Shown: piece by piece, positions 3,211-43,375 of the stretch | How the letters are laid out: every line of letters begins with the position of its first letter | How positions within the stretch are numbered: position 1 is the first letter of the stretch | Assembly: GCF_000027125.1 (NCBI RefSeq) | Contig: NC_017626.1 | DNA length: 64,000 nucleotides | Direction: 5' to 3' (one strand) | From: Escherichia coli 042 | Lineage (GTDB): Bacteria; Pseudomonadota; Gammaproteobacteria; Enterobacterales; Enterobacteriaceae | The notes under the pieces: generated by a model | Database searches by the model: none | Told to the model about the DNA's origin: nothing | What the model saw: the letters and a program-made list of their open reading frames with translations, nothing else | Position numbers and translations under genes: made by a program

Positions 3211-3501
3211 CCTGGCCTGAAGCATTAACAACGGTAGGAATTGCGATGGCGGTGGCGCTGGTGGTGTATTCGATTTGCCGCTGGGGATAAAAACGGTTTG
3301 CGGGAAAAGGAGAGTTAAGTAGAATTGCAGCGGGTGCTTGAGGCTATCTGTCTCAGGCATGAACACCAAAAGGCAGATAGAGAAAAGCCCCAGTTAACAT
3401 TACGCGTCCGGCAAGACGCTTAACATTAATCTGAGGCCATATCTATGCTCTACACACGTAGGTTAGCCTCTTACGTGCCGAAAGGCAAGGAGAAGCAGGC
3501 T

Positions 3502-3657
3502 ATGAAGCAGCAAAAGGCGATGCTAATCGCCCTGATCGTCATCTGTTTAACCGTCATTGTGACGGCACTGGTAACGAGGAAAGACCTCTGCGAGGTACGA
3601 ATCCGAACCGGCCAGACGGAGGTCGCTGTCTTCACAGCTTACGAACCTGAGGAGTAA
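3502..3657 (+). CDS. hokD: Hok/Gef-family type I toxin (HokD/RelF-like)
   Basis: 51-aa product MKQQKAMLIALIVICLTVIVTALVTRKDLCEVRIRTGQTEVAVFTAYEPEE matches my recollection of the Hok family (TM helix, conserved Cys, C-terminal AYE); in-frame upstream extension from 3445; hairpins downstream. Confidence 0.8.
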   Translation: MKQQKAMLIALIVICLTVIVTALVTRKDLCEVRIRTGQTEVAVFTAYEPEE

Positions 3658-4473: not shown

Positions 4474-5557
4474 CTTCACTGAGTATCGGGGTGATAAGCT
4501 CAAACTAGCGAGAATGGCTGTTGGGCTTTCTTGTGAAGAGTTAGCCGAAAAAATTGGCAAGACAAAGCAATTCGTTAGCAAACTGGAGAAGGGGTGCAGG
4601 CCATCGGAGCAATGTCTTGAGTTAATATCTTCAGCGCTTATGATTAAGTCCAGTTTTCTTTTTACTGAACGAAAATACGCTCTGGAAAGTGATGTCTGCC
4701 ATTTTCGGAGTAAGAAGTCCAGGACTCAAACGCTGACTAATAGTGTATTGGCCAGGGCTGAGATTCTTAATATTATAATTTCTGCTGTTGAAGGTGAAAT
4801 CGAATTTCCTGACGTTAACATACCGGAGCACCCAGGGGCTGAATTACTTACTCCGAATGATATTGAGCGAGTGGCAGAAGATTGTCGCCGTGCCTGGAAT
4901 TTAGGTCTTGGCCCTATATCATCAATGGTTAAATTGGCGGAGAGTTTAGGGGTAATCGTTGCGCATGTTACGGGAGTCGATGATCGTGTTGATGCTTTTA
5001 CTGTTCACAATAACAGGCCTGTTATCATCAGGAACAATGTTAAAAAAAGCATATGTAGATTTCGCTCTGATTTAGGTCATGAATTAGGGCATTTAGTAAT
5101 GCATGAGGGCATAACGACAGGTGATAAACTTACGGAATCACAAGCCGATCACTTTTCGAGCGCCTTATTAGTTCCCAGGTTATCTTTCATTAAAGAATTT
5201 CCACGAATACGAGGTAAGCAATTCGACTGGAATGCTCTGGTTGAATTTAAACTTAGATGGAAAATCAGCCTTAAAATGTGTATTTATCGAGCCAGCGCAT
5301 TAGGCTTATTGACCCAGGAACAGGCAAGAACTGGCTATATGCATCTTAATTCCAGAGGGTATACGAGAGTTGAACCTGGTGATGAACTTTTGCGCCCTGA
5401 AGAACCCGGCATGCTGGCCGAGGCGATTGAAATGCTGGATGATGCAACCTGGCTAAGAATTCTTATGAAAACTGGCTTGAGCCAAGATTTAATTCGTGAG
5501 TTGTTCTCCATCAACAGACCTATTACAAATCCAAGAAATATTTTCCAGATTGTTTGA
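4451..5557 (+). CDS. XRE-family HTH fused to ImmA/IrrE-type (HEXXH) zinc metallopeptidase
   Basis: N-terminal HTH (LARMAVGLSCEELAEKIGKTKQFVSKLEKG); C-terminal HELGHLVMHE motif typical of ImmA/IrrE (COG2856/M78-like) peptidases. Confidence 0.7.
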   Translation: MMEHQVNNFTEYRGDKLKLARMAVGLSCEELAEKIGKTKQFVSKLEKGCRPSEQCLELISSALMIKSSFLFTERKYALESDVCHFRSKKSRTQTLTNSVLARAEILNIIISAVEGEIEFPDVNIPEHPGAELLTPNDIERVAEDCRRAWNLGLGPISSMVKLAESLGVIVAHVTGVDDRVDAFTVHNNRPVIIRNNVKKSICRFRSDLGHELGHLVMHEGITTGDKLTESQADHFSSALLVPRLSFIKEFPRIRGKQFDWNALVEFKLRWKISLKMCIYRASALGLLTQEQARTGYMHLNSRGYTRVEPGDELLRPEEPGMLAEAIEMLDDATWLRILMKTGLSQDLIRELFSINRPITNPRNIFQIV

Positions 5558-5562
5558 GTATA

Positions 5563-5582
5563 CCCGCTTCGGCGGGTTTTTT
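5563..5582 (+). terminator. Rho-independent terminator hairpin (copy 2)
   Basis: cccgcttcggcggg plus T-run directly after the 4451..5557 stop. Confidence 0.6.
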
Positions 5583-5714
5583 GTTTTTATTTTCAACGTG
5601 TTTGAAGTTTTGGACGGTGCCAGAATAGAATCAAAAATACTTAAGTAGCGCGCAGGGAGAAGAGGGATGGACCCCGAACAGGGGGAGTGCTATTTATCTG
5701 GAAGGATTCTGTTG

Positions 5715-5888
5715 ATGAAAATCGAAGAATTACGTGAAATTTTTAGTGAAGATGGCCTCTATGCTGTGCGCGTTGAGAATGGGGGTATTACCTACACAGC
5801 GTTAATTCCTGATGATCATGTAGTGTTATCTGTTGAGGCATTCATTGAATACTTGGAAAGACTCGGTTTCAAGGTAGTTCGGGAATAA
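5715..5888 (+). CDS. Hypothetical small protein
   Basis: ATG at 5715 within ORF 5667..5888 (MKIEELREIF...); AT-rich upstream region. Confidence 0.35.
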   Translation: MKIEELREIFSEDGLYAVRVENGGITYTALIPDDHVVLSVEAFIEYLERLGFKVVRE

Positions 5889-5935
5889 GTTATAATACGT
5901 GAGCCAGCCTGAACAACTGGCAACCTGCAGCGCCA

Positions 5936-6220
5936 TTGGAGATGACAATGGCGCATAATTTCAAATTTCGCAATTCTGATTCTGCCTTTGCCAGCAGGCA
6001 CGGGTGGCGTTCTCACGCATTCAAATATGACTGGTATCAGCACGATCCCTGTACTGAAGAACAGGCCGAATGGCTGATTCATAACTACCGCAGACGTGGA
6101 TATGAGTTTAGGAAAGCCCTCACCCTCGATTATCGTCACTGGATAATCTACGTCAGACTCCCTTATTCCGAACGCCCACCGCGTCCGTCCCGCACATTCC
6201 AGCAACGCATCTGGAGGTAA
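5936..6220 (+). CDS. Hypothetical phage protein (rem-like position)
   Basis: 94-aa ORF directly upstream of the DUF968 gene, same position as rem in Qin. Confidence 0.4.
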   Translation: MEMTMAHNFKFRNSDSAFASRHGWRSHAFKYDWYQHDPCTEEQAEWLIHNYRRRGYEFRKALTLDYRHWIIYVRLPYSERPPRPSRTFQQRIWR

Positions 6221-6221
6221 C

Positions 6222-7268
6222 GTGCGGGTATTACTTCGACCTGTTCTGGTACCGGAACTCGGGCTGGTGATCGTTAAGCCGGGCCGTGAATCCATGCCGG
6301 TATTCCACAATACCCGGGTACTGGTGGAGCCGGAACCGAAAAGCATGCGTAATCTGCCGTCCGGGGTCGTTCCTGCCGTTCGCCAGCCGCTGGCGGAGGA
6401 TAAATCATTACTGCCATTTTTCAGCGACGAACGAGTGATTCGTGCTGCTGGTGGCGCTGGCGCATTGTCTGATTGGTTACTGCGCCATGTTAAATCCTGC
6501 CAGTGGCCACACGGCGATTATCACCACAGTGAAACCGTCATTCACCGTTATGGTACCGGCGCAATGGTGTTGTGCTGGCACTGCGACAACCAGCTGCGCG
6601 ACCAGACCTCCGAATCACTCGGGCAACTTGCTCACCAAAACCTGTCTGCATGGATGATTGACGTCATACGCCATGCAATGAATGGCTCGCAGGAACGGGA
6701 ATTATCGCTGGCTGAATTATCCTGGTGGGCGGTCCGCAATCAGGTGGCGGACGCGCTACCGGAAGCGGTATTACGTCGTTCGCTGGGGTTGCGTGCGGAA
6801 AAAATCCGCTCAATGTACCGTGAAAGCGACATCGTACCGGGAGAGCAGACCGCCACCAGCATACTGAAGCAGCGCACAAAAAATCTTGCGCCGCTGCCTC
6901 ACGCCCACCAGCAAAACCCGCCACAGGAAGAGACGGTGGTCAGCATTGCCGTTGATCCTGAGTCTCCGGAATCTTTCATGAAACGACCTAAACGTCGCCG
7001 CTGGGTTAACGAGAAATACACACGCTGGGTGAAGACACAGCCGTGTGCGTGTTGTGGTAAGCCAGCCGACGATCCCCATCACCTGATTGGTCATGGTCAG
7101 GGCGGAATGGGGACAAAATCTCACGATATTTTCACGCTACCGCTGTGTCGGGAGCATCACAACGAGCTTCATGCGGATCCGCTGGCGTTCGAAGAAAAGC
7201 ATGGTTCTCAGGTTGATTTAATTTTTCGTTTTCTTGATCACGCCTTTGCAACTGGCGTGCTTGGGTAA
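6222..7268 (+). CDS. DUF968-family phage protein (YdfU-like)
   Basis: 348 aa; C-terminal Cys/His cluster CACCGK...HHLIGHGQGG...CREHHNELH recalled from YdfU-like prophage proteins; sits upstream of rusA/Q. Confidence 0.6.
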   Translation: MRVLLRPVLVPELGLVIVKPGRESMPVFHNTRVLVEPEPKSMRNLPSGVVPAVRQPLAEDKSLLPFFSDERVIRAAGGAGALSDWLLRHVKSCQWPHGDYHHSETVIHRYGTGAMVLCWHCDNQLRDQTSESLGQLAHQNLSAWMIDVIRHAMNGSQERELSLAELSWWAVRNQVADALPEAVLRRSLGLRAEKIRSMYRESDIVPGEQTATSILKQRTKNLAPLPHAHQQNPPQEETVVSIAVDPESPESFMKRPKRRRWVNEKYTRWVKTQPCACCGKPADDPHHLIGHGQGGMGTKSHDIFTLPLCREHHNELHADPLAFEEKHGSQVDLIFRFLDHAFATGVLG

Positions 7269-7280
7269 AAGAGGTGACTG

Positions 7281-7655
7281 ATGCTCATAGATTTGGTTTT
7301 ACCTTACCCGCCGACGGTGAACACTTACTGGCGACGCCGTGGCAGCACATATTTTATCTCGGAGGAGGGAAAGCGTTATCGCCGGGCTGTGGCGCTTATT
7401 GTTCGCCAGCAGCGGCTGAAATTAAGCCTGTCCGGAAGGCTGGCGATAAAGGTGATTGCAGAGCCACCGGATAAGCGTCGTCGCGACCTGGACAATATCC
7501 TGAAAGCACCGCTGGATGCGCTGACGCATGCGGGAGTGTTAATGGACGATGAGCAGTTTGATGAAATCAATATCGTTCGTGGTCAGCCAGTATCTGGTGG
7601 ACGTCTGGGGGTGAAGATTTACCCCATAATGCTTGAAGGGCAGGTCAAAAAATGA
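7281..7655 (+). CDS. rusA: Holliday junction resolvase RusA
   Basis: 124 aa; RRRDLDNILKAPLDAL matches the conserved RusA DxDN catalytic region. Confidence 0.85.
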   Translation: MLIDLVLPYPPTVNTYWRRRGSTYFISEEGKRYRRAVALIVRQQRLKLSLSGRLAIKVIAEPPDKRRRDLDNILKAPLDALTHAGVLMDDEQFDEINIVRGQPVSGGRLGVKIYPIMLEGQVKK

Positions 7656-8473
7656 AACTGGAAGATTTACCGAAATACTACTCCCCAAAATCCCCCGGCC
7701 TGACTGATGCATCGGCCTCAACGTCGAAAGATGCGCTGAGTATCACTGATGTGATGGCCGCGCAGGGCATGACACAGAATCGGGCTGAGATGGGGTTTTC
7801 TGCGTTCCTTGGGAAAATGGGCATTAGTATGAATGACAGAGAGCGGGCAACAGAATTGCTGACAGAATATGCACTCAGGCGGTGTGATCGCGTGGCGGCG
7901 TTAAGAAAACTCCCGGCAGAAATAAAACCGGCAGTGATGCGTATTATGGCTTCGTATGCGTTTGAAGATTATGCCCGTAGCGCGGCGAGCAAAAAACAGT
8001 GCTCCTGCTGTCACGGAAAAAAATTTATTGAAAGCGAGGTTTTTACAAACAAGATCCAGTATCCGGATGGTAAGCCGCCGGTATGGGCAAAGTGTACGAA
8101 AGGTGTGTATCCGTCTTACTGGGAAGAATGGAAAAAAGTCAGGGAGGTGGTAAAAGTTGCCTGTCCGGAGTGTGGCGGAAAGGGTGAGGTTTCCACCGCC
8201 TGTAAGGATTGCCGTGGGCGTGGTGTCGCCATTCATCGTGAAGAGTCGGTAAAACGTGGTATGCCTGTTATCAGAGACTGCCAGCGTTGTGGTGGTCGTG
8301 GCTGTGAAAGACTACCATCAACGGAGGCATTTAATGCCATATGCAAAGTGACGAGTGCTATCACGCTTGATACGTGGAAAAAATCAGTGAAACGCTTTTA
8401 CGATACGTTGGTGGTTCGGTTTGACATTGAAGAGGCATGGGCGGAGCGGCAGTTAAAGAGGGTAACGCGATAG
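7652..8473 (+). CDS. Late-gene antiterminator Q-like protein (QuuQ-type) with zinc fingers
   Basis: 273 aa with repeated CxxCxGxG motifs; follows rusA and precedes a terminator and the late region. Confidence 0.6.
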   Translation: MKLEDLPKYYSPKSPGLTDASASTSKDALSITDVMAAQGMTQNRAEMGFSAFLGKMGISMNDRERATELLTEYALRRCDRVAALRKLPAEIKPAVMRIMASYAFEDYARSAASKKQCSCCHGKKFIESEVFTNKIQYPDGKPPVWAKCTKGVYPSYWEEWKKVREVVKVACPECGGKGEVSTACKDCRGRGVAIHREESVKRGMPVIRDCQRCGGRGCERLPSTEAFNAICKVTSAITLDTWKKSVKRFYDTLVVRFDIEEAWAERQLKRVTR

Positions 8474-8555
8474 TGTTGTTGATTTTTCCCGAATCTGTGG
8501 TAAATTTGCTCTAACGATGGGCGTTTTATGCCTGACGTTAGAAGATTTTTTACAC

Positions 8556-8577
8556 CCCGCCGCCTGGCGGGTTTTTT
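8556..8577 (+). terminator. Rho-independent terminator, probably tR' of the late promoter region
   Basis: cccgcc gcct ggcggg hairpin followed by TTTTTT just downstream of Q. Confidence 0.5.
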
Positions 8578-8699
8578 ATGACTGAAATCGCGTCAGTACA
8601 GTAAACGCGCTGGTGGCGGTGAATACCTGTCTTTCAGCTTGCTGGCTTTTTCGACAAGAGTTATTGGTGTGTCACGTTAACCGGGAAAGGGAAAAAGAC

Positions 8700-8897
8700 A
8701 TGCTAAAACAGCAGGATATGACAGAAACCGCCAGAGTAGTGTTTAATGAATTAAGCGTTACCGAACCGGCGACAGTCGGGGAGATAGCGCAGAATACTTA
8801 CCTTTCACGCGAACGCTGCCAGTTAATACTGACCCAGCTGGTTATGGCGGGTCTGGCAGACTATCAGTTCGGTTGTTACAGACGCCTTCCGCAGTGA
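8700..8897 (+). CDS. Hypothetical small protein, possibly winged-helix
   Basis: ATG at 8700 within ORF 8613..8897. Confidence 0.35.
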   Translation: MLKQQDMTETARVVFNELSVTEPATVGEIAQNTYLSRERCQLILTQLVMAGLADYQFGCYRRLPQ

Positions 8898-9047
8898 AGG
8901 CTTTTTTATTTGTGGTAAATGGGCGGCTGGTGGGTGTTAGGGGCACCCACCAGCCATCTGCTCATGCGTTGGGTTCACAAGCAAACCTCAGGCCCACTGC
9001 TTTGCGCAAAAGCAGAATGAGCCTATCAGAGACAGGCTTAATGATCC

Positions 9048-10097
9048 ATGCTTAATACTGTAAAAATATCCAGTTGTGAGTTAATCAACGCCGACTGCCT
9101 GGAATTTATCCGGTCGTTACCCGAAAATTCTGTTGACCTGATAGTCACGGACCCGCCGTACTTTAAAGTGAAGCCTGAAGGCTGGGATAACCAGTGGAAG
9201 GGCGACGATGATTACCTGAAGTGGCTGGACCAGTGTCTGGCGCAGTTCTGGCGGGTGCTGAAACCTGCCGGAAGTCTTTACCTGTTCTGTGGTCATCGCC
9301 TGGCATCTGATATCGAAATCATGATGCGTGAACGCTTCAGTGTGCTGAACCATATTATCTGGGCGAAGCCGTCCGGACGCTGGAACGGATGCAACAAGGA
9401 AAGCCTGCGGGCGTATTTCCCCGCCACAGAGCGCATTCTGTTCGCGGAACATTATCAGGGGCCGTATCGTCCGAAAGATGCCGGGTATGCGGCGAAGGGC
9501 AGTGCACTGAAACAGCATGTGATGGCCCCGCTGATTTCTTACTTTCGTGATGCGCGCGCGGCCCTGGGGATAACGGCAAAACAGATTGCAGATGCCACAG
9601 GAAAGAAAAACATGGTGTCGCACTGGTTCAGTGCCAGTCAGTGGCAGCTACCGAACGAAAGCGATTATCTGAAATTACAGTCGCTGTTTGCCCGGGTGGC
9701 AGAAGAGAAACATCAGCGCGGTGAACTGGAAAAGCCCCACCACCAGCTGGTGGATACGTATACGTCACTGAACCGGCAGTATGTGGAGCTGCAGAGTGAA
9801 TATAAGCATCTGCGGCGGTATTTTGGTGTGACGGCGCAGGTGCCGTACACGGATGTGTGGACACATAAACCGGTGCAGTTCTATCCCGGGAAACATCCGT
9901 GCGAAAAACCGGCAGAAATGCTGCAGCAGATAATCAGCGCAAGCAGTCGTCCGGGTGACCTGGTTGCAGATTTTTTTATGGGCTCAGGTTCAACGGTAAA
10001 AGCGGCACTGGCGCTCGGGCGTCGTGCGATTGGCGTTGAACTGGAGACCGGACGTTTTGAGCAGACAGTCAGGGAAGTTCAGGATTTAATCGTTTGA
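9048..10097 (+). CDS. DNA N6-adenine/N4-cytosine methyltransferase (beta-class), no partner nuclease seen
   Basis: IVTDPPYF (motif IV) near the N-terminus and FMGSGST (motif I) near the C-terminus. Confidence 0.8.
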   Translation: MLNTVKISSCELINADCLEFIRSLPENSVDLIVTDPPYFKVKPEGWDNQWKGDDDYLKWLDQCLAQFWRVLKPAGSLYLFCGHRLASDIEIMMRERFSVLNHIIWAKPSGRWNGCNKESLRAYFPATERILFAEHYQGPYRPKDAGYAAKGSALKQHVMAPLISYFRDARAALGITAKQIADATGKKNMVSHWFSASQWQLPNESDYLKLQSLFARVAEEKHQRGELEKPHHQLVDTYTSLNRQYVELQSEYKHLRRYFGVTAQVPYTDVWTHKPVQFYPGKHPCEKPAEMLQQIISASSRPGDLVADFFMGSGSTVKAALALGRRAIGVELETGRFEQTVREVQDLIV

Positions 10098-10146
10098 AAC
10101 GGATGAGATTGCAGAATTAATTACGCACCATTATTATTCTGCTCCC

Positions 10147-10222
10147 GGCCCTTTAGCTCAGTGGTGAGAGCGAGCGACTCATAATCGCCAGGTCGCTGGT
10201 TCAAATCCAGCAAGGGCCACCA
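10147..10222 (+). tRNA. ileZ: tRNA with CAT anticodon, Ile2 (lysidine)-type or Met
   Basis: 76-nt cloverleaf: acceptor ggccctt/aagggcc, T-arm gctgg-ttcaaat-ccagc, anticodon loop ctCATaa, 3' CCA; close to recalled E. coli tRNA-Ile2. Confidence 0.85.
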
Positions 10223-10229
10223 TCACATA

Positions 10230-10306
10230 CCGCCATTAGCTCATCAGGAAAGAGCGCCAGCCTTCGAAGCTGGTTGCGCGGAGTTCGGGTCCCCGAAGGC
10301 GGTCCA
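10230..10306 (+). tRNA. tRNA-Arg (anticodon TCG as read)
   Basis: 77-nt cloverleaf: anticodon stem ccagc/gctgg with loop ctTCGaa, 3' CCA; one mismatch each in acceptor and T stems. Confidence 0.6.
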
Positions 10307-10319
10307 TTATCTGTATCCT

Positions 10320-10396
10320 GCGTTGTTAGCTCAGCCGGACAGAGCAATTGCCTTCTAAGCAATCGGTCACTGGTTCGAATCCAGTACAACGCGCCA
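10320..10396 (+). tRNA. tRNA-Arg (anticodon TCT)
   Basis: 77-nt cloverleaf: acceptor gcgttgt/acaacgc, T-arm actgg-ttcgaat-ccagt, anticodon loop ctTCTaa, 3' CCA. Confidence 0.85.
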
Positions 10397-10440
10397 CACT
10401 TATTTTCCCTGGCTCGCTTTTGCGGGCTTTTTTTTAAATG

Positions 10441-10656
10441 TCTCACAATTCAGGCGGTTGACTGTTGTCTGGTTTGCGGGGAGTTTGTTAAAAGAAACTG
10501 GCATGGTGAATCCCCCTGTGCGGAGGGGCAATCAGCGAGTAGGTATATGGGATAATCGCGGATTCAGGTGCTGGTACTGAATTCACCGGGAGGCACCCGG
10601 CACCATGCAATGGCACATAGCGCCACTCTCCAGCCCCTCTCCGGAGGGGCTTTTCT
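10441..10656 (+). repeat. Structured repeat unit 1 (sRNA-like: promoter-like box, hairpins, terminator)
   Basis: Shares with unit 2 the blocks tcacaattcag, ttgac, ttgttaaaa, gcatggtgaatccccctg.gcggagggg, gtataat/ggataat, caccgggaggcacccggcaccatg and terminator gcccctctccggaggggc+T-run. Confidence 0.55.
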
Positions 10657-10908
10657 GTGCCGGATACATCACAGTTTCTGGAACCTTAGGTACTACAGTA
10701 TCAGTCAGGGTGCTATATTTTCAGATGTGATGAAAGCCTGTCAGCAGGCAGGGCGTATCGGAAATGACCCAGTAGAGAAAACGTTGACTCAGATACCGGT
10801 GCTGAGTTACCGGGAAACCGGCATCACATGACCGCTATCCTTCCAGGCCCATCCGCTCCGGTGGGCCTTTTTACTGCAGAAAACAGGTTCCCCGTTAAAT
10901 GCTATGTT

Positions 10909-11141
10909 GCTCACAATTCAGTAAGTTGACAGTTGCCTGTCAGACTGGGCATTTGTTAAAAAAATTTCGCATGGTGAATCCCCCTGAGCGGAGGGGCGAC
11001 TGGTGACGGTATAATCTCTGATTATCAAAACGAGAATGACGCGGGTTTAGTGGCACCGGACTGAACTCACCGGGAGGCACCCGGCACCATGTGCATGATG
11101 ATACAGATACGCGGCTTTAGCCCCTCTCCGGAGGGGCTTTC
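10909..11141 (+). repeat. Structured repeat unit 2 (sRNA-like)
   Basis: Second diverged copy of the same ~220-bp unit, with a perfect TATAAT at 11010-11015. Confidence 0.55.
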
Positions 11142-11371
11142 TTATGGACAAAAAAAGCCCGCGCTGGGAGACGCGGGCGGCAAGGAATAAACAATAAAAC
11201 GTGAAGTAATATTTCAGCTGGCGAATAATACCCCATAGTAATCACTCTGCGCAACTGCGCGGTCTTTTTCGAATTGCGGGCTGTAGTCTCCCTTCTGCCA
11301 TTGTCCTGTAACTTCCGGACTTCAGCCTGCTCCTTATCTGACTCACAACATTATCCCGCCCGGGAGGATTC

Positions 11372-13225
11372 ATGGCATTTAAACACTATGACGTGGTCAG
11401 GGCGGCATCGCCGTCAGACCTTGCGAAACGACTGACACAAAAACTGAAGGAGGGCTGGCAGCCGTTTGGTAGTCCGGTGGCCATAACCCCTTATACCCTG
11501 ATGCAGGCGATTGCAGCAGAAGGTGATGTGGTCGTCAGTGGTGCAACTGAGCCGGAGTGGTACTACGTCATCGTACTGGCCGGGCAATCCAATGCCATGG
11601 CTTACGGTGAAGGGCTTCCGCTTCCGGATTCATACGATGCGCCCCATCCGCGCATTAAGCAACTGGCCCGTCGTAACACAGTGACTCCCGGTGGTGAAGT
11701 ATGCGTATTTAACGACATCATTCCTGCTGACCATTGTCTGCATGATGTTCAGGATATGAGTACGATTAACCATCCCCGGGCTGACCTGAGCAAAGGGCAG
11801 TACGGCTGTGTCGGACAGGGCTTACATATTGCCAAAAAACTGCTTCCGTATATCCCTAATAATGCGGGGATCCTGCTGGTACCATGCTGTCGTGGTGGTT
11901 CGGCATTCACCCAGGGCACGGAGGGGACATTCAGCGAGTCCACGGGAGCCAGTCAGGATTCGGCTCGCTGGGGAGTGGGTAAGCCGTTATATCAGGATCT
12001 GCTTTTCCGCACGAAGGCAGCATTGCAGAAAAACCCGAAAAACGTTTTGCTGGCGATATGCTGGATGCAGGGGGAATTCGATATGACGAATGCCAGTTAC
12101 GCCCAGCAGCCAGCAGCATTTCTTGCAATGGTACAGCAGTTCCGTGCTGACCTTGCCGGGCTGGCAGCGCAGTGTCACGGTGGAAGTCCGGCATCAGTCC
12201 CCTGGATTTGTGGCGACACGACATACGCGTGGAAACAAGAACACGGTACGCAATATGAAGTGGTATATGGTGCATATAAAGGTAAAGAATCCCAGCAGAT
12301 TTATTTTGTTCCCTTTATGACCGATGGTAGCGGAGTTAATACACCGACAAACAACCCGTCAGAAGATCCTGATATTGCCGGGTCTGGTTATTACGGTTCG
12401 GCATCCCGAACGAACAAAAACTGGGTATCATCAAATCGCCCGACGCATTTCAGCTCATGGGCGCGTCGTGGCATTATTCCCGATCGTATGGCAACTGCTA
12501 TTCTGAACGTAGCCGGTCGCACCTTAGCCTTCATTAGTGGTAAGGCACCGGAAATCAAACCCTCGCCCGGCGGCGACACGCCATTGGGGCCGTCTGAAGA
12601 TGCATCCATACGCACAATCTCCCTGTTGCCGACAGCCGGAGACGCTGCTGCGCAGGGCTGGAGCATTAAGAATGGCGGAATTCAGTTGTCAGATGGTGTA
12701 TTTAAGATCACCAAGCAGAGCAATAAAGCCTGGTCCCTGACGCGCCCGGTGGATGACGCAGTCTCCCTGCTGACACGGGGTGGCAGACTGAGCTGTAAGT
12801 TTCGACTGTCAGGCGCACTGACCAACAATCAGTTCGGTCTGGGAATTTATCTGTATACCGATGTAGCGTTACCTGACGTCGTGGCGATGACCGGGACTGG
12901 TAACCCGTTCCTGATGTCGTTCTTCACCCAGACCACAGACGGCAAACTGAATCTGATGCATCACAAGAAAGCAGGAAACACAAAGTTGGGCGAGTTCGGG
13001 AATTACAGTAACGACTGGCAGACGCTGGAGCTGGTGTTCACCGCCGGCAGTGCCACGGTTACTCCGAAACTGAATGGAGTGGCTGGCCCGGCATTCCAGG
13101 TCATAAAAGACAGTCTGACACTGGGGCTGAATGCGCTGACGCTGACGGATATTACCAAAAATGCAGCGTATGGCGTTGAGATAGAAAGTCTGGTGCTGGA
13201 GATAAATGCACCGGCATCATCATAA
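11372..13225 (+). CDS. Phage NanS-p-like sialate O-acetylesterase (DUF1737 + SGNH hydrolase)
   Basis: 617 aa; N-terminal MAFKHYDVV... and GQSNAMAYGEG esterase motif; occupies the post-tRNA position before the lysis genes. Confidence 0.75.
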   Translation: MAFKHYDVVRAASPSDLAKRLTQKLKEGWQPFGSPVAITPYTLMQAIAAEGDVVVSGATEPEWYYVIVLAGQSNAMAYGEGLPLPDSYDAPHPRIKQLARRNTVTPGGEVCVFNDIIPADHCLHDVQDMSTINHPRADLSKGQYGCVGQGLHIAKKLLPYIPNNAGILLVPCCRGGSAFTQGTEGTFSESTGASQDSARWGVGKPLYQDLLFRTKAALQKNPKNVLLAICWMQGEFDMTNASYAQQPAAFLAMVQQFRADLAGLAAQCHGGSPASVPWICGDTTYAWKQEHGTQYEVVYGAYKGKESQQIYFVPFMTDGSGVNTPTNNPSEDPDIAGSGYYGSASRTNKNWVSSNRPTHFSSWARRGIIPDRMATAILNVAGRTLAFISGKAPEIKPSPGGDTPLGPSEDASIRTISLLPTAGDAAAQGWSIKNGGIQLSDGVFKITKQSNKAWSLTRPVDDAVSLLTRGGRLSCKFRLSGALTNNQFGLGIYLYTDVALPDVVAMTGTGNPFLMSFFTQTTDGKLNLMHHKKAGNTKLGEFGNYSNDWQTLELVFTAGSATVTPKLNGVAGPAFQVIKDSLTLGLNALTLTDITKNAAYGVEIESLVLEINAPASS

Positions 13226-13375
13226 AAAGTGAGCCAGCCAAATGGAAGGTATCGTTAAACTCACCGGTAGTGTCAGTGGGTCGTCTGAGATGCCTGCATG
13301 AGTTATCAGAGCCATCAGTACTTAACTGGTGGCTTTTTTTATTGTTGTCAGCTTCCGGATAACGGGAGACGGGGT

Positions 13376-13591
13376 ATGTACCAGATGGAAAAAATCACAA
13401 CAGGTGTGTCATACACCACGTCAGCGGTGGGAACGGGCTACTGGTTCCTGCAGTTGCTGGACAGGGTTTCCCCGTCTCAGTGGGCGGCAATAGGCGTGCT
13501 GGGGAGTCTGCTGTTTGGGCTGCTGACATATCTGACTAACCTGTATTTCAAAATCAGAGAGGACCGTCGTAAGGCTGCACGGGGAGAGTAA
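13376..13591 (+). CDS. Holin, S21-type pinholin with dual start
   Basis: 71 aa [10 protein letters not shown]...[24 protein letters not shown]...[13 protein letters not shown] matches recalled phage 21 S; two in-frame Met (M1, M4) as in antiholin/holin pairs. Confidence 0.85.
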
Positions 13592-13595
13592 TTCA

Positions 13596-13911
13596 ATGAC
13601 TCAAAACTATGAACTGATTGTGAAAGGGATCCGCAATTTTGAGAATAAAGTTACGGTAACTTTAGCGTTACGGGACAAAAAAACGCTTTGACGGTGAAAT
13701 TTTTGACCTGGACATCTCGCTGGACCGTGTTGAAGGTGCCGCGCTGGAGTTTTATGAGGCAGCAGCCAGAAGGAGCATCAGACAGGTCTTCCTGGATGTT
13801 GCTGCCGGGTTATGTGAAGGGGACGAGCTGTTGCCAGAAACGCGCCCCTGTTCAGAGGCGCGGTATACCATAAAAATTAACAGTTCTGATAACTCGATTA
13901 CGGGTTGTTAG
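13596..13911 (+). pseudogene. ydfR-like small gene split by a frameshift at an A7 run
   Basis: ATG 13596 reads 31 codons to TGA at 13689-13691; the +1 frame continues open from 13684 to TAG 13909-13911 with no start codon; junction is the A7 tract 13677-13683. Confidence 0.5.
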
Positions 13912-13966
13912 CTTTTTGCAGTTGGCTTTCCAGTATCTTTCATTGGTAGCATCCTGATAAATATCC

Positions 13967-14500
13967 ATGAGCGCAAAAATCAAATACGGCCTGTCAGCTG
14001 CTGTTCTGGCGCTGATTGCTGCAGGCGCGTCTGCTCCTCAGATACTTGACCAGTTTCTGGACGAAAAAGAGGGTAACCACACAACGGCATACCGCGATGG
14101 TTCCGGCATCTGGACCATCTGTCGGGGGGCCACGATGGTGGATGGAAAACCCGTTTTTCCCGGTATGAAACTGTCGAAGGAAAAATGCGACCAGGTCAAC
14201 GCCATTGAGCGTGATAAGGCGCTGGCATGGGTGGAGAAAAACATCAAAGTGCCATTGAGCGAACCCCAGAAAGCGGGGATCGCGTCATTCTGTCCGTACA
14301 ACATTGGTCCCGGTAAGTGTTTCCCGTCGACGTTTTATAAACGAATTAATGCAGGTGATCGCAGGGGAGCGTGTGAGGCGATTCGCTGGTGGATTAAGGA
14401 CGGTGGCAGAGACTGCCGTATTCGTTCAAACAACTGCTACGGTCAGGTATCCCGTCGTGACCAGGAGAGCGCGCTGGCGTGCTGGGGTATCGACAGATAA
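13967..14500 (+). CDS. SAR endolysin (phage lysozyme, R21-like)
   Basis: 177 aa; N-terminal signal-anchor LSAAVLALIAAGASAP followed by lysozyme fold, T4-lysozyme-like (GH24) family as recalled for R21. Confidence 0.85.
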   Translation: MSAKIKYGLSAAVLALIAAGASAPQILDQFLDEKEGNHTTAYRDGSGIWTICRGATMVDGKPVFPGMKLSKEKCDQVNAIERDKALAWVEKNIKVPLSEPQKAGIASFCPYNIGPGKCFPSTFYKRINAGDRRGACEAIRWWIKDGGRDCRIRSNNCYGQVSRRDQESALACWGIDR

Positions 14501-14659
14501 GCAGAATATTTTGCTGAAAAATAAGGCATGGCCACGCGGGCGGATAACATGAAATCCTGCGAAGTGGCGAAACGTAAGTGAATAAAAGTAAAAACCCCGT
14601 TTGTTGGCACCAAGCGGGGTTTTGTGTTTCCTGACTCCGGAAAAGTCAAAGGAGAAAGT

Positions 14660-14797
14660 GTGTTTGATTTTAGCAAACTGATTCGGGAGATTCGAGTGAT
14701 GGCTGAAAAATTATCCACCTGGAAGTTCATTCTTATCTGGCTGGTGTTTGTGATTATGGCCTCCGGTTATTTCATCGGTCAGATACGCTGGTGGTGA
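14660..14797 (+). CDS. Possible small membrane protein between R and Rz
   Basis: GTG 14660 (or ATG 14699) after GGAG; hydrophobic [20 protein letters not shown]; stop overlaps Rz start. Confidence 0.25.
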
Positions 14798-14798
14798 A

Positions 14799-15263
14799 AT
14801 GAACCGCGTACTGTGCGTGGTCATCATTGCCCTGCTGGTGGCCTGTGGTGCGCTTAGTCTGGGGCTGAATCATTACCGTGATAACGCCATTACCTACAAA
14901 GCCCAGCGCGACAAAAATGTCAGAGAACTGAAGCTGGCGAACGCGGCAATTACTGACATGCAGATGCGTCAGCGTGATGTTGCTGCGCTCGATGCAAAAT
15001 ACACGAAGGAGTTAGCTGATGCGAAAGCTGAAAATGATGCTCTGCGTGATGATGTTGCCGCTGGTCGTCGTCGGTTGCACATCAAAGCAGTCTGTCAGTC
15101 AGTGCGTGAAGCCACCACCGCCTCCGGCGTGGATAATGCAGCCTCCCCCCGACTGGCAGACACCGCTGAACGGGATTATTTCACCCTCAGAGCGCGACTG
15201 ATAATAATGCAAAAACAACTTGAAGGGGCACAGCTATACATTCGAGAGCAATGCCTCAGATAA
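14799..15263 (+). CDS. Rz: Rz i-spanin
   Basis: 154 aa, near-identical over most of its length to recalled lambda Rz ([17 protein letters not shown]...). Confidence 0.9.
15019..15201 (+). CDS. Rz1: Rz1 o-spanin lipoprotein, embedded in Rz in +1 frame
   Basis: 60 aa with lipobox VVGC and proline-rich [20 protein letters not shown] as in lambda Rz1. Confidence 0.85.
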
Positions 15264-15570
15264 AAACCGGCCAAGGATAATCCGCTGAAGATTCGCCGGT
15301 GGCTAAAGTGTGCCAAGAGTTCAATTTACGCAATTACTCCTGTCGATGCTATGCACCGTCTTTGTGAAGTCAATGGATACCTGATTTATTTCTGTGCGCT
15401 GTATCGTCGCTGTACTCTTGCATTAATTATGACTGTAGCCTGACGGGGAACTCCTTCTGCACAAGTGTGGGGGAATAATCAAAAACGATGCACACCGGGG
15501 TTACCGGGTACACATATTTCATCATGCCAGCGAGTCCGGTTCTGGTACGGAAGAAACCGGACGTTATGAT

Positions 15571-15996
15571 TTAGTGCGGAAATATTTGTGTAGTGTTCTG
15601 AATGTTCTCAGTAAAGAGTAATGAATTATCAAAGGTATAGTAATATCTTTTGTTTTCGTGGATATTTGTAATCCATCTGAAAACCCCTGCTGTAGCAAGA
15701 TTTTTCCTGTATTCGTAAAATGATAACTCTCCTGATTTGAATCCTTTTAAGGTGGCTTCTATAAGGCATTTATTTTTTGAAAATCTTACATTTACAACCT
15801 TACCCTGTCCTTTTATTAAAACCGTATTATCGTTTTCAAGAACAAGATGAATATTCTCTGTGGCTAAATAGTAAATGTAATGTGAGACATTGTGACGTTT
15901 TAGTTCAGAATAAAACCAGTGATAGTTTAAATTATTTCGCACTTTATCGAATATTTGTTTAAAAATGGCAACCTGAGCCATTGTAGTACCTTCCAT
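15571..15996 (-). CDS. Hypothetical cargo protein, possibly DUF1398/YbcV-like
   Basis: 141-aa AT-rich ORF on the minus strand between Rz and cos, the position of bor in lambda. Confidence 0.45.
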
Positions 15997-16038
15997 GTGA
16001 TATGAGGGGGCGTAGTCTGCACGATTATCTAAATTGCT

Positions 16039-16272
16039 TCAATCTGGTCTGACCTGTTTTCTGAGCAATTCAGTAATGTCACTCTTTTCTTTGTTTGCTT
16101 CAGGCGAAACTCTTTTTTCTGAGCACAGTCTCCGGCGGCAGGCTTCAATGACCCAGGCTGAGAAATTCCCGGACCCTTTTTGAACAAGAGCGATGTTAAT
16201 TTGTTCAATCATTTGGTTAGGAAAGCGGATGTTGCGGGTTGTTGTTCTGCGGGTTCTGTTCTTCGTTGACAT
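16039..16272 (-). CDS. Ribbon-helix-helix (Arc/MetJ-like) DNA-binding protein
   Basis: 77 aa; basic N-terminus then NIRFPNQMIEQINIALVQKG...FSAWVIEACRRRL resembles the RHH beta-strand plus two helices. Confidence 0.5.
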   Translation of the reverse strand: MSTKNRTRRTTTRNIRFPNQMIEQINIALVQKGSGNFSAWVIEACRRRLCSEKRVSPEANKEKSDITELLRKQVRPD

Positions 16273-16471
16273 GAGGTTGCCCTGTATTCAGTGTCGCTGA
16301 TTTGTATTGTCTGAAGTTGTTTTTACGTTAGGTTGATGCAGATCAATTAATACGATACCTGCGTCATAATTGATTATTTGACGTGGTTTGATGGCCTCCA
16401 CGCACGTTGTGATATGTAGATGATAATCATTATCGCTTTACGGGTCCTTTCCGGTGATCCGACAGGTTACG

Positions 16472-16483
16472 GGGCGGCGACCT
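16472..16483 (+). other. cos: cos site (cosN 12-nt cohesive end) with cosB downstream
   Basis: cgggtcctttccggtgatccgacaggttacg / gggcggcgacct cgcgg...tatttatgaaaatttt matches the lambda genome ends as I recall them. Confidence 0.8.
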
Positions 16484-16659
16484 CGCGGTTTTTCACTATT
16501 TATGAAAATTTTTCAGGGAAAATCGTGTCGGTACTTCTCGAATATAACTTTTTGTTTTTTTTAATATTACATCCGTAAAGGTCCGACATGAAAGTGTCCG
16601 AAAATGACTTTTTCTGGCGTTTTCATGTCGGGCCTTGTATTTGATAATGGGTTGTTTTC

Positions 16660-17208
16660 ATGAAGGTTAATAAAAAGAGGCTTGCCGAAATTTTCAACGT
16701 GGACCCGCGGACGATTGAACGCTGGCAGTCTCAGGGACTCCCTTGCGCCTCCAAAGGTAGTAAGGGCATTGAATCTGTATTTGATACTGCCATGGCAATT
16801 CAGTGGTATGCGCAGAGGGAAACTGATATCGAAAACGAAAAGCTCCGCAAAGAACTGGACGATTTGCGTGCGGCAGCGGAGTCAGATTTACAACCCGGCA
16901 CCATTGACTATGAACGCTACCGGCTCACAAAAGCGCAGGCAGATGCGCAGGAACTGAAAAATGCCCGTGAAGACGGAGTAGTGCTGGAAACTGAACTGTT
17001 TACCTTCATTCTGCAACGTGTGGCACAGGAGATTTCGGGGATACTTGTGCGTGTGCCGTTGACATTACAGCGTAAATATTCGGACATTTCACCATCACAC
17101 CTTGATGTGGTGAAAACTGAAATCGCGAAAGCCTCCAATGTTGCAGCTAAGGCCGGTGAAAACGTGGGCGGGTGGATCGATGATTTCAGACGCGCAGAAG
17201 GCAGCTAA
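16660..17208 (+). CDS. nu1: Terminase small subunit Nu1
   Basis: 182 aa [12 protein letters not shown]...IENEKL, lambda Nu1-like N-terminal HTH. Confidence 0.9.
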
Positions 17209-39916: not shown

Positions 39917-40500
39917 TGGTATTCAGAATGAGTGAACAACCACGGACCATAACAATTTATAATCTGCTGGCCGGAACTAATGAATTTATTGGTGAAGGTG
40001 ATGCATATATTCCGCCTCATACAGGTCTGCCAGCAAACAGTACCGATATTGCACCGCCAGATATTCCGGCAGGCTTCGTGGCTGTTTTCAACAGTGATGA
40101 GGCATCGTGGCATCTCGTTGAAGATCATCGGGGTAAAACGGTTTATGACGTGGCTTCCGGCGACGCGTTATTTATTTCTGAACTCGGTCCGTTACCGGAA
40201 AATGTTACCTGGTTATCGCCGGAAGGGGAGTTTCAGAAGTGGAACGGCACAGCCTGGGTGAAGGATACGGAAGCAGAAAAACTGTTCCGGATCCGGGAGG
40301 CGGAAGAAACAAAAAACAACCTGATGCAGGTAGCCAGTGAGCATATTGCGCCGCTTCAGGATGCTGCAGATCTGGAAATTGCAACGGAGGAAGAAACCTC
40401 ATTGCTGGAAGCCTGGAAAAAGTATCGGGTGTTGCTGAACCGTGTTGATACATCAACTGCACCTGATATTGAGTGGCCTACGAACCCTGTCAGGGAGTAA
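39916..40500 (+). CDS. tfa: Tail fibre assembly protein
   Basis: 194 aa directly after stf with ATGA overlap. Confidence 0.8.
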
Positions 40501-40554: not shown

Positions 40555-41223
40555 CTATTTTTTCCCTGAAGCGGAAAACATTACTACAGTACCTTGAACC
40601 TTGGTTTTAACATTCTCGAAATGCTCTGAGAGTATATGTGTTAAGCCTTCTTCGGAATCTTTTGTGTTTGAAAAGATGCCTTTCTGATTGTAAATGCGCA
40701 TCAGTTTTTGACCGAAGCTATTGTGCACAACTCCATCGCCAAGAATTGTGGCTCCGTATAGAGTTCCATCGTCAGTTAAGGCCTGCGCCGCATTGCGTAT
40801 TACACAGCTTTTTGTAGATATATTTCCAGGCAGGCAGTGAAGAAGGTAAAACATGGAAATGGAATCAAATTGACCATGTAACGCCGCGGGATAAGGTTCA
40901 AAAACATCATGGCTAATTTTATGTTTAATTTTTGATTCCCCAGCCCTTGTAGATGCCGCGTTCAGGCTAGCTTCGTTCAAATCCATTAAAGATATCAGAC
41001 TACTCTCAGGTACGTGAGTAAGGTAAAACCCAGTTCCAACACCAATATCCAGATGGTTGTTACCTAAATGTTCCAGAAAGTGTGGAAGAAGGTGTTCCTT
41101 TGTAGGACATCCCCATGCAAGCCGATTTGATACTCCCAAAACCCACCAGTCATAAAGCTTTAGGGTAAGTGGTGTGTAAATTTTAGCCCCATCATCTGTG
41201 TTTTTTTTCATTAATTTCACCAT
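40555..41223 (-). CDS. Class I SAM-dependent methyltransferase (cargo gene)
   Basis: 222 aa, AT-rich, opposite strand; HLDIGVGTGF resembles the Rossmann motif I of SAM methyltransferases. Confidence 0.6.
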   Translation of the reverse strand: MVKLMKKNTDDGAKIYTPLTLKLYDWWVLGVSNRLAWGCPTKEHLLPHFLEHLGNNHLDIGVGTGFYLTHVPESSLISLMDLNEASLNAASTRAGESKIKHKISHDVFEPYPAALHGQFDSISMFYLLHCLPGNISTKSCVIRNAAQALTDDGTLYGATILGDGVVHNSFGQKLMRIYNQKGIFSNTKDSEEGLTHILSEHFENVKTKVQGTVVMFSASGKK

Positions 41224-41549: not shown

Positions 41550-42322
41550 TCATTGGGATTATGCCGCAGACACGTCGTATGCAGGAACGTGCTGCGGTTA
41601 GTTTGTGAGCTTTCGATAGTGGTTGTTATTTTTGCCCTTATTTGTTCCGGAGGCCATGGTTCAATGGTCCGTCTGCCCCCTGTGGTGATGTCAGCAAAAT
41701 CAGCCACTGCGCGAACCACAATAGCCCGGGAAGATGCTGAAGATCACCAGGTAAAGCTGTCAGCGCAGAAACTGGAAGAACTGCTCGCATCAATGGTTAA
41801 GGATGAGGTTGATCGCAATGATGGGATTTATTGACGTCAGCGAGAGCAGAAGGAAGAACTGAATAACCTGAATGATTTACGCTCAATCAGAGCGATGATG
41901 ATTGGCAGTAATTAGCGGTCAATTTCGGTTTTTTTGGCTGTGCGCTCCCCGCCCAGCATTGCGCGTCAATTAGCCCCAAAAAAACGAAAAAGTTACAATC
42001 AAGTAAAAAATTCCTTCTGCAAAACTAAAAAAGATTTCAATAAAATCAGACAGTTAAAAGCATAAAAAAAGGTACAAAAAAAACATCTCAAAGTCTTGTT
42101 TTTTGCTTCAAATACAATTGGTTATTGTGTTTTTTGAAACCTACCAGTCTGGTACATGGATATCGATACCACCGCCAATTATAAGCTGGGCGGTGCACAG
42201 CAACACGATAGCGTACGCCTCGATCCGTGGGTGTTTATGTTCTCAGCAGGATATCGTTTTTAATTCCGCACAAAAACGACCCCGTAATATACGGGGTCAA
42301 TAAGGACATGGTATAAAGGGTA

Positions 42323-42829
42323 TTATTTCTTCGCTTCTACGCCATCAGTTTCAGAGCGAATTAAAAATTTCTCAGTTGTTTGCGGAATATGCTGAATCAG
42401 CCAGTCGGCCATTTCTTTTTCCTCATTTAAAATCGCTTCGATGGTTGGAATTGAAGCTGTATCACCGGCATTTTTTGCTGCTGCTAATAGTGAGGTGTAA
42501 CAGGCGATTTCAAATTGCTCGAAGACATATCCGCTAATAGAGCCTTTGACTATTTCATCAGAAGGGAATATACCACCGATTGACTGCCCAAGCGCAGCCA
42601 TTTTACTCATGGAATCTTTAATGACTGAACGTGAAATGTCATTACGATCAAGAATAGTTTCCAGTTGAACAATCTGGTTTTTGGTTTCACTAAGATGTTG
42701 TTCAATACGAGCGCGTAGTTCAGGATAATTATCTATACGACTAGCCATGGATTCAAGCATAGATTCGGCTTGCTTTTCCATTGCGTGGGCGTCACGTAAC
42801 CAGTCATGATAATGTTCAATACGATTCAT
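42323..42829 (-). CDS. yciE: YciE (ferritin-like, DUF892)
   Basis: 168 aa; recalled as E. coli YciE by sequence and position next to yciF. Confidence 0.85.
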   Translation of the reverse strand: MNRIEHYHDWLRDAHAMEKQAESMLESMASRIDNYPELRARIEQHLSETKNQIVQLETILDRNDISRSVIKDSMSKMAALGQSIGGIFPSDEIVKGSISGYVFEQFEIACYTSLLAAAKNAGDTASIPTIEAILNEEKEMADWLIQHIPQTTEKFLIRSETDGVEAKK

Positions 42830-42874
42830 GAAAATGTCCTCTTTATAAAATGACTAAAAGTTAAAGTTCATATT

Positions 42875-43375
42875 TCAGGCTTTATTTTCGGCTTTCTTAT
42901 TTACGTTATTAAGTGCCAGATCAGTCAGTTTGATGTCGGTGGCCTTTTCTTCTTCCAGGGTTTCTTTCAGAAGCTTCGCTGCTTTACGATAACCTAATTG
43001 TTCAGCCAGCGTTGCTAAGGTCCCGTAACTGGCGATCTCATAGTGCTCGACCTTCTGTGCAGCGGCAATCAGTGCGGCATCACGCACTTCGTTTTTCTCG
43101 GTGCTTTCGATGACCTCATTAGCTTCATCAATTAGACCTTCCATTGCCACACATTTCATGCGCTTAATTTTCAGGTTCGATTCGGACTCCACAACTTGAT
43201 CAATACGTTCAATCTGTCCATGAGTTTCCTCGAGGTGCGCATGAAAAGCCTGACTTAATTTTTCGTTTGATGTTGCTCTTGCGAGTTTTGCCAGTGCCCG
43301 GGTTAATTGTTTTTCTGCGCTGTAGGTATCTGAAAGCAGGTGAATAAATACATCTTCAATGGTCTTCATATTCAT
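42875..43375 (-). CDS. yciF: YciF (DUF892 stress protein)
   Basis: Start taken at MNMKTIEDVF... inside ORF 42875..43423. Confidence 0.85.
   Translation of the reverse strand: MNMKTIEDVFIHLLSDTYSAEKQLTRALAKLARATSNEKLSQAFHAHLEETHGQIERIDQVVESESNLKIKRMKCVAMEGLIDEANEVIESTEKNEVRDAALIAAAQKVEHYEIASYGTLATLAEQLGYRKAAKLLKETLEEEKATDIKLTDLALNNVNKKAENKA

Follow-up and report, generated by a model that had tools for sequence, protein, structure and literature searches.

In lambdoid phages the late promoter PR' typically lies after the antiterminator gene Q and before a terminator (PMC7547250), and phage lambda itself (Q, PR', 6S RNA, tR', S-R-Rz) combines a constitutive late promoter, an immediate terminator, antitermination by Q and a lysis cassette downstream (PMC7547250). 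Tree et al. (2014) described convergent pairs of Hfq-bound small RNAs (sRNAs) "3' of PR' in the moron insertion site" (PMC4104026): in the Shiga toxin 2 (Stx2) phage Sp5 the sense-strand EcOnc27 and the antisense AsxR follow stx2B (PMC4104026), and a similar organisation occurs in Sp3, Sp4, Sp9, Sp10, Sp11, Sp15 and Sp17, i.e., in seven other lambdoid prophages, mostly non-Stx (PMC4104026). EcOnc27 is an Hfq-bound sRNA (PMC4104026, PMC12711010) that overlaps the STnc100 prediction (PMC12711010), and STnc100 lies 75 nt after stx2 in other E. coli strains that produce Shiga toxin (PMC12370729). PasD, a Northern-validated sRNA of enteropathogenic E. coli (EPEC) with a common origin with STnc100, is located just upstream of the prophage esterase gene (10.64898/2026.05.13.724894; PMC8550237). 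Here we compare these systems with the late-control region of a prophage in Escherichia coli 042, contained in a 64,000-nucleotide stretch of contig NC_017626.1 (hereafter the window, whose positions are used throughout), and in particular with the stretch between its tRNA cluster and its esterase gene, which includes the place where Stx2 phages hold their toxin genes (the slot).

With a probability of nearly nine in ten, we read this locus as the late regulatory region, under the control of Q, of a lambda-like prophage in ompW that belongs to the same modular family as the Stx-converting phages and that never carried stx, or carries it no longer, with four sRNA genes in the slot (Table 1). 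The prophage, which has a full lambda-like head and tail module, interrupts E. coli ompW. The first-pass annotation had placed Q, a terminator, a DNA methyltransferase, three tRNAs (CAT, TCG and TCT anticodons), an esterase and lysis genes in this order on the plus strand, and every element is present as described; within the span it had given, 8500-13225, lie the methylase, the tRNAs and the esterase, but Q ends just left of it and the lysis genes lie to the right. It had also likened this layout to the late regions of Stx phages, and alignment bears this out and rules out that the two are unrelated. From 7600 to 10434 the window aligns without a break to the Stx2a phage Stx2_EH1910 at 94.2% identity, through Q, the small open reading frame (ORF), the methylase, the tRNAs and the terminator, to 37 nt past the last tRNA. 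A megablast search with 7600-13600 against 50,697 phage records matched 394 of them, mostly named as Stx1- or Stx2-converting, and none covers 80% of the query, a shortfall for which the break in the local alignment at the slot accounts.

Table 1 Features of the late region and their supporting evidence (window positions)
Feature	Position	Strand	Evidence and remarks
Q-type late antiterminator, 273 aa	7652-8473	+	phrog_127, E = 6e-112; phrog_25523, E = 9e-114 ("anti-termination protein Q-like")
Candidate late promoter PR'	8479-8506	+	TTGATT, 16 nt, TAAATT, with TG upstream; read by eye
tR'-like intrinsic terminator	8556-8578 (8556-8571 plus T-run)	+	CCCGCCGCCTGGCGGG; six GC pairs, then TTTTTT; terminator scan
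Conserved 66-aa ORF	8700-8897	+	phrog_331, E = 1e-37
Terminator of the 66-aa ORF	8884-8901	+	Terminator scan
Orphan beta-class N6-adenine DNA methyltransferase, 349 aa	9048-10097	+	phrog_67, E = 3e-104; NCBIfam adenine methyltransferase domains; PDB beta-class methyltransferases, E = 1e-25
tRNA, anticodon CAT	10147-10222	+	ARAGORN; Rfam tRNA, 72.5 bits; identical to the Stx2_EH1910 copy
tRNA-Arg (TCG)	10230-10306	+	ARAGORN; Rfam, 43.4 bits against 54.8 for the Stx2_EH1910 copy
tRNA-Arg (TCT)	10320-10396	+	ARAGORN; Rfam, 70.1 bits; identical to the Stx2_EH1910 copy
Terminator that follows the tRNAs; left edge of toxin slot	10411-10436	+	Terminator scan; Stx2a homology ends at 10434
sRNA unit 1, STnc100/EcOnc27/PasD family	10472-10662	+	Rfam RF02076, 136.3 bits, E = 1e-30, full model
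Diverged third (middle) unit, STnc100-like architecture	10701-10874	+	Rfam, 30.1 bits, E = 5e-5 (slot searched alone); own terminator at 10845-10868
sRNA unit 2, STnc100/EcOnc27 family	10940-11149	+	Rfam RF02076, 165.4 bits, E = 4e-38, full model
Convergent sRNA gene	~11147-11328	-	Placed by offset from the EPEC homologue; 3' core 11150-11222; abuts unit 2
NanS-p-type sialate O-acetylesterase, 617 aa	11372-13225	+	Pfam DUF1737 (3-50), SASA (66-262), DUF6645 (467-577)
Holin	13376-13591	+	Lysis cassette (13376-15263): phrog_20, phrog_7, phrog_13; RefSeq, near-identical genomes
Lysozyme	13967-14500	+	Lysis-cassette PHROGs; RefSeq, near-identical genomes
Rz, with embedded Rz1 (15019-15201)	14799-15263	+	Lysis-cassette PHROGs; RefSeq, near-identical genomes

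The Stx2 phages Stx2_EH1910 (LC567834), 86 (AB255436) and 1720a-02 (KF030445) share with the window the order Q, terminator, small ORF, methylase, tRNAs CAT/TCG/TCT, slot, STnc100-type sRNA, convergent sRNA, NanS-p, holin and lysis genes, at 94% identity on the left side and ~93-95% from esterase to holin on the right. They differ in that the stx2 promoter and stx2AB lie between the tRNA terminator and the sRNA unit, where the window has two further sRNA units. The homology to Stx2_EH1910 that stops at 10434 resumes at 10911-11145, which corresponds to the 240 bp directly 3' of the phage stx2B, and in phage 86 stx2A and stx2B are followed, after 46 nt, by the equivalent of 10911-13848 of the window (unit 2, esterase, holin). 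Identity to phage 86 from unit 2 to the holin is 95.3% by megablast; plain blastn gives 78% across unit 2 and 93% beyond it. The stx2 promoter and stx2AB take up ~1.34 kb in Stx2 phages, as against 476 bp at 10435-10910 in the window. A repeat unit (CTCACAATTCAG...TTGAC) starts at the right edge of this interval, and the first such unit in the window begins 4 nt past the left edge. The toxin cassette thus comes after the tRNA terminator and ahead of the first sRNA unit, a position that helps to judge whether stx was lost from a strain or was never present.

In agreement with the first-pass annotation, no stxA- or stxB-like ORF was found: tblastn of Stx2A and Stx2B against the whole 64-kb window gave a best E of 0.7, and blastn of the stx2AB cassette against the window returned flank matches only, so that the stxA and stxB genes by which an Stx-converting phage is defined are both missing. 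A former Stx phage from which stxAB has been deleted, the slot being the scar, would account for flanks that are both 94-95% identical to genuine Stx2 phages, and a preprint on the Pas sRNAs suggests repeated loss of stx after acquisition (10.64898/2026.05.13.724894). We nevertheless consider such a deletion quite unlikely. There is no remnant of stx in the window at the protein or the DNA level, and the slot has two further sRNA units, both complete and each with a terminator, and no truncated junction. The same three-unit array, middle unit included, is present in phage PhiR5_2 at only ~77% identity and is therefore old, not a recent scar. The exact slot is at least 80% covered in 352 of 5,426 complete E. 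coli genomes (the set used for all frequencies below), many of them avian or extraintestinal. Finally, there are simple stx-free versions with a single unit placed directly after the tRNAs, and these fit stx as an insertion (moron) that came to lie after the tRNA terminator and before the unit (PMC4104026). On account of the missing remnant, the intact extra units, the age of the array and the existence of these simple versions, the comparison of sequences favours a prophage that never had stx over one that lost it.

The genes at the left of the region would provide the elements of lambda-type late control. A near-identical Q gene is labelled "antitermination protein" by RefSeq, in keeping with membership in the Q-antiterminator family, and Q shares 94% nucleotide identity with quuQ of Stx2_EH1910; compared with phage lambda, Q of the window is of another, longer type, and ~5 kb of accessory genes lie between tR' and the holin gene. 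The candidate PR' scores below the threshold of the consensus promoter scan and is placed directly 3' of Q and 5' of the terminator, which is kept in Stx2_EH1910. The 66-aa ORF, which the first-pass annotation did not mention, is labelled as a hypothetical protein both by RefSeq and in the Stx2 phage records. Terminator-like sites are enriched between 8300 and 13700 (17, against 5.1 +/- 2.5 expected), and co-oriented holin, endolysin and spanin genes are followed downstream by terminase and structural genes, as in a lambdoid late operon. By analogy with lambdoid and Stx-phage biology (PMC7547250), the late promoter after Q would be constitutively active in the lysogen and its transcript would end at the tR'-like terminator, and since transcription would halt there, the methylase, esterase and lysis genes would be silent. 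Upon induction, Q would render RNA polymerase resistant to this terminator and to the many later ones, and one long transcript would extend from the small ORF to the lysis genes, with the methylase, the three tRNAs, the slot and the NanS-p esterase in between. The sRNA genes, which have their own terminators, are the part of the region for which expression in the lysogen is expected.

The 975 bp from the last tRNA to the esterase gene (10397-11371) lack a credible ORF. The first-pass annotation had seen only repeat units in the toxin slot; direct repeat families of 88, 32 and 22 nt are indeed present, but they match the sRNA family RF02076 (STnc100) and are not mere repeats. The curated gathering score of this family is 47 bits, which units 1 and 2 both exceed. 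Covariance-model scores and homology indicate that the slot comprises four self-contained sRNA genes, each with its own terminator, three of them in tandem on the plus strand and one convergent on the minus strand. Unit 1 is predicted to fold at -69.1 kcal/mol (z = -2.4) and is 100% identical over 138 nt (10516-10653) to the 3' part of the unit of EPEC prophage PP6. Unit 2 is orthologous to the unit that immediately follows stx2B in Stx2 phages, with 87.7% identity to Stx2_EH1910 5677-5915. Rfam places the STnc100 family directly after stx2B in Stx2_EH1910 and phage 1720a-02, and before the esterase gene in the stx-negative phage PPyecE_EH1910 (LC567835). An alignment of seven strong members reveals an invariant scaffold, i.e., a 5' hairpin (GAAUCCCCC...GGGGC), a closing helix (CAUGGUG...CACCAUG) and a terminator (AGCCCCUCUCCGGAGGGGCUUU), and two variable segments, one in the central region and one of ~25 nt that separates the closing helix from the terminator. 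The scaffold is unchanging across STnc100-type copies that are 74% identical while the two segments vary freely, and the differences between units 1 and 2 fall in these segments; we infer that the two are paralogues with different pairing segments. RefSeq annotates no sRNA gene here, but a 126-nt partial pseudogene ("hypothetical protein") on the minus strand over unit 1 (10491-10616 by offset), which is probably an annotation artefact.

The minus-strand sRNA occupies the position and orientation of AgvB and AsxR and is near-identical to the Hfq-associated EPEC candidate E2348C_1409.E2348C_1408.IGR (NC_011601, minus strand, 1444797-1444978; prophage PP6), which was detected by RIL-seq, a method in which interacting RNAs are ligated and sequenced. 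Its authors list this candidate as a homologue of EcOnc08/21/42 of enterohaemorrhagic E. coli (EHEC) and report many RIL-seq chimeras, e.g., 767 with the cfa 5' untranslated region, and the target motif GGCAGGG/GGCAAGG. In the window, terminator scan and folding place a strong terminator at 11178-11157, followed by U7, at the 3' end of the sRNA, and in the predicted fold this terminator is preceded by a U-rich single-stranded stretch with a CCUUGCC seed. The only promoter-like site that the scan returned on the minus strand, 11378 to 11350, lies just upstream of this gene. An assignment to AgvB or AsxR themselves (RF02702/RF02703) was rejected: Rfam gave no match at E <= 1 in 7000-17000, although AgvB was found at 96.5 bits in PPyecE_EH1910, and the 3' region is unlike those of the PPyecE_EH1910 AgvB (conserved ~42-nt 3' region) and the AsxR-type RNA of phage 86. 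A plus-strand hairpin (CTGCGCAACTGCGCGG, followed by a U-run) at 11247-11268, ~100 nt before the esterase start, is kept in PPyecE_EH1910, EPEC PP6 and Stx2 phage 86, and its place is that of the PasD terminator in EPEC PP2.

The arrangement has close counterparts in prophages with and without stx. The non-Stx lambdoid prophages of EHEC Sakai likewise have sRNA genes, one per strand, between the moron position downstream of PR' and a conserved large ORF (the esterase), and the Sakai RNAs are Hfq-bound (PMC4104026); going by the published description, they have one sense-strand unit as opposed to three in tandem in the window. Prophage PP6 of EPEC E2348/69 has Q, the tRNAs and an STnc100 unit in common with the window, as well as the minus-strand sRNA and an esterase with 88% amino-acid identity, but has one unit only, which is split by an ISEc13 insertion (PP6 record 5112-6485), and no methylase. 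EPEC PP2 has PasD2, with a scaffold of the type found in the window and likewise upstream of the esterase gene. PPyecE_EH1910 shares Q, the small ORF, the methylase, an STnc100 unit, a convergent sRNA, NanS-p, the lysis genes and the absence of stx; it differs in that protein-coding genes (plasmid-stabilisation-like, regulator and TerB-like) occupy the slot as cargo, it has no tRNAs and its convergent sRNA is AgvB. The convergent sRNA of phage 86 is likewise of the AsxR/AgvB type, whereas that of the window is from another family. PasA and PasC, which lie between esterase and holin in EPEC prophages, were looked for in the window and are absent. In EHEC and EPEC, relatives of the slot sRNAs are bound by Hfq and base-pair with host mRNAs, and by analogy the sRNAs of the slot would probably act as Hfq-dependent base-pairing regulators of host mRNAs, i.e., as moron cargo that benefits the lysogen.

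The middle unit has the multi-branch fold of the strong units in other letters (closing helix AUGUGAUG...CAUCACAU, 5' hairpin CCUGUC...GGCAGG; z = -2.2) and a TGcTATATT extended -10-like element at 10710-10718. It is 100% identical in E. coli ATCC 11775 (DSM 30083), a strain that carries this prophage, and occurs in 672 of the genomes, as two alleles only. All four substitutions between these alleles at paired positions of the 5' hairpin keep pairing, one of them being a double change from C-G to U-A, and the terminator is rebuilt around a 4-nt deletion. We do not file the unit as an STnc100 member, since its score is under the Rfam threshold, although the architecture is the same; the validated PasD2 itself scores only 41.4 bits against RF02076, so a low score need not mean a dead gene. 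This unannotated, sub-threshold unit is the only mildly new item of the region. A more specific reading, which we offer tentatively and put at somewhat short of an even chance, is that the slot forms a three-gene tandem array of sRNAs that share a scaffold and differ in their variable (seed) segments, plus the convergent sRNA, as a regulatory cassette expressed in lysogens of extraintestinal and commensal E. coli, with the middle gene as a not-yet-catalogued subfamily.

The slot could alternatively encode small proteins, e.g., from a 33-codon ORF at 10730-10831 or from ORFs beginning MVNPP... that start inside units 1 and 2. The 33-codon ORF is open in both alleles of the middle unit, and an annotated coding sequence overlaps this unit in PhiR5_2. 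However, there is no Shine-Dalgarno sequence 5' of its ATG, six of the eight nucleotide differences are in nonsynonymous codons and cluster in the RNA hairpin, and the ORFs in the strong units range from 0 to 25 codons between homologues. For these reasons RNA is favoured over peptide for the middle unit, and, going by these nucleotide features, we regard protein-coding by the slot as highly improbable.

Several points weigh against our reading of the slot as four sRNA genes in a functional late region. The middle unit stays below the gathering score of RF02076 (30.1 against 47 bits) and so falls outside the family by that measure, one substitution weakens the end of its closing helix, and the evidence from covariation is thin because there are only two alleles. 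In the terminator of unit 2 the U-tract (UUUCUUAU) is weak. No plus-strand promoter in the slot came out of the consensus scan, and the sRNA promoters would be extended -10-like elements, read by eye. The function of the STnc100/PasD RNAs is not yet known (10.64898/2026.05.13.724894), and expression in lysogens and Hfq binding have been shown for the EHEC and EPEC homologues only (PMC4104026, PMC8550237). The left end of the prophage falls outside the window, and a YdfR-family ORF at ~13596-13911, between holin and lysozyme, carries a frameshift flag in near-identical RefSeq genomes; on both counts inducibility is in doubt. Lastly, non-specific adenine methylation by the methylase would be an extrapolation, via 95% amino-acid identity to the enzyme of phage 1720a-02, which Murray et al. 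call very similar to M.EcoGII (PMC5778455).

The lack of a promoter in the scan and of a known function for STnc100 in the literature, together with a RefSeq annotation devoid of RNA genes in the slot, would also suit units that are non-functional repeated DNA, or that serve merely as transcription terminators or insulators. This we hold to be decidedly unlikely. The covariance-model scores of units 1 and 2 are far over the curated threshold, and homologues are Hfq-bound or Hfq-stabilised in EHEC and EPEC according to crosslinking and immunoprecipitation, RIL-seq and Northern blots. An invariant scaffold with two freely varying segments, and stem substitutions in the middle unit that preserve pairing, likewise speak against mere repeats and in favour of sRNA genes.

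Prophages of this kind are common. The 6-kb region is at least 80% covered in 600 of the genomes, from avian, human and porcine isolates, with a best identity of 99.6%, and some part of the slot is present in 2,869. The surprise at the missing toxin that the first-pass annotation implied is therefore unwarranted: toxin-free versions of the layout are very frequent and already documented. What we describe is an ordinary, previously described thing, i.e., an stx-free member of the family of Stx-type lambdoid late regions with known sRNA genes in the moron slot. What looks like a disarmed Shiga phage is a prophage type that is normal and very frequent in E. coli, and the result serves mainly as a sanity check. 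It also points to a gap in annotation, in that standard pipelines leave the slot blank or fill it with a spurious pseudogene despite four probable regulatory RNA genes.

The methylase has an N-terminal DPPY motif (VTDPPYF) followed by a C-terminal FxGxG motif (FFMGSGS). No nuclease or restriction-enzyme gene is found among the nearby ORFs of the window, which makes the label "orphan" of the first-pass annotation correct. M.EcoGII, a non-specific adenine methylase of 349 aa, is silent in lysogens and toxic once expressed (PMC5778455), and the enzyme of the window has the sequence hallmarks of the M.EcoGI/M.EcoGII type, i.e., 349 residues, beta-class, both motifs, a prophage location and no cognate nuclease. 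Its place in the late transcript fits methylation of progeny DNA, which by analogy would likely protect that DNA against restriction. In strain CB7453, which has a near-identical prophage, the methylase gene is preceded by a partial duplicate of its 5' end (CB7453 record 12634-13002), ~450 bp of extra sequence that is absent from the window.

The 617-aa ORF had been called a NanS-p-like esterase, and both its Pfam domains and its matches to NanS (PDB 3PT5, E = 4.5e-122) and to the C-terminal domain of NanS-p (6YP6, E = 4e-30) agree with this. It has the DUF1737 N-terminal domain, the SASA catalytic domain and the lectin-like C-terminal domain of NanS-p, keeps the GQSN motif in the alignment and is 90% identical in amino acids to the orthologue in Stx2 phage 86. 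NanS-p alleles from EDL933 and O104:H4 have esterase activity on Neu5,9Ac2 (PMC8065619), and esterase alleles of Stx and non-Stx prophages act on O-acetylated sialic acids (PMC8065619, PMC10462455). The NCBIfam search returned no family for the esterase, the holin or Q, for which PHROGs, Pfam and PDB gave families.

The CAT/TCG/TCT anticodon set is common to the window and the Stx2 phages, as is its place between the methylase and the moron slot. ARAGORN, which goes by the anticodon alone, calls the CAT tRNA Met, whereas RefSeq/PGAP annotates the identical gene as tRNA-Ile, a reader of AUA after lysidine modification. The three tRNAs would read codons that are rare in E. coli and more used by the prophage than by the host: AUA, AGG and CGG are 2-6 times more frequent in prophage genes than in flanking host genes (5.4 against 2.5, 4.1 against 0.7 and 13.1 against 3.7 per 1000 codons, respectively), and stx2AB is richer still in AUA (36.6 per 1000). 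Compared with the Stx2a phage copy, tRNA-Arg(TCG) has TTCGGGT instead of TTCGAGT in the T-arm and an A.C mismatch in the stem of that arm, which may mean that this tRNA is weakened.

At the right end of the prophage, ~42138-42263 (by offset from the CB7453 record) and 42323-43423, only a 3' remnant of ompW is present, adjoining yciE and yciF; this site ("PPompW") is used by some Stx2a phages too. A class I S-adenosylmethionine-dependent methyltransferase gene on the minus strand (40555-41223), after the tail-fibre genes, is likely a cargo (moron) gene. The early region of the prophage contains a hok/sok type I toxin-antitoxin locus at 3332-3507 (Rfam sok, 117 bits), and near-identical genomes have hokD annotated at the corresponding position. 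PasB, which in other prophages lies between tail genes I and J, was looked for in the window and is absent; IS009 (RF02111), which often neighbours PasB according to the Pas sRNA preprint (10.64898/2026.05.13.724894), has a full-length match of 225 bits at 40259-40457, where the tail-fibre assembly gene region has its 3' end. Host DNA makes up the right part of the window, with yciEFG, the trp operon and topA, and to the right of topA the chromosome carries a match to STnc180 (RF02079; 203 bits) at 63111-63313.

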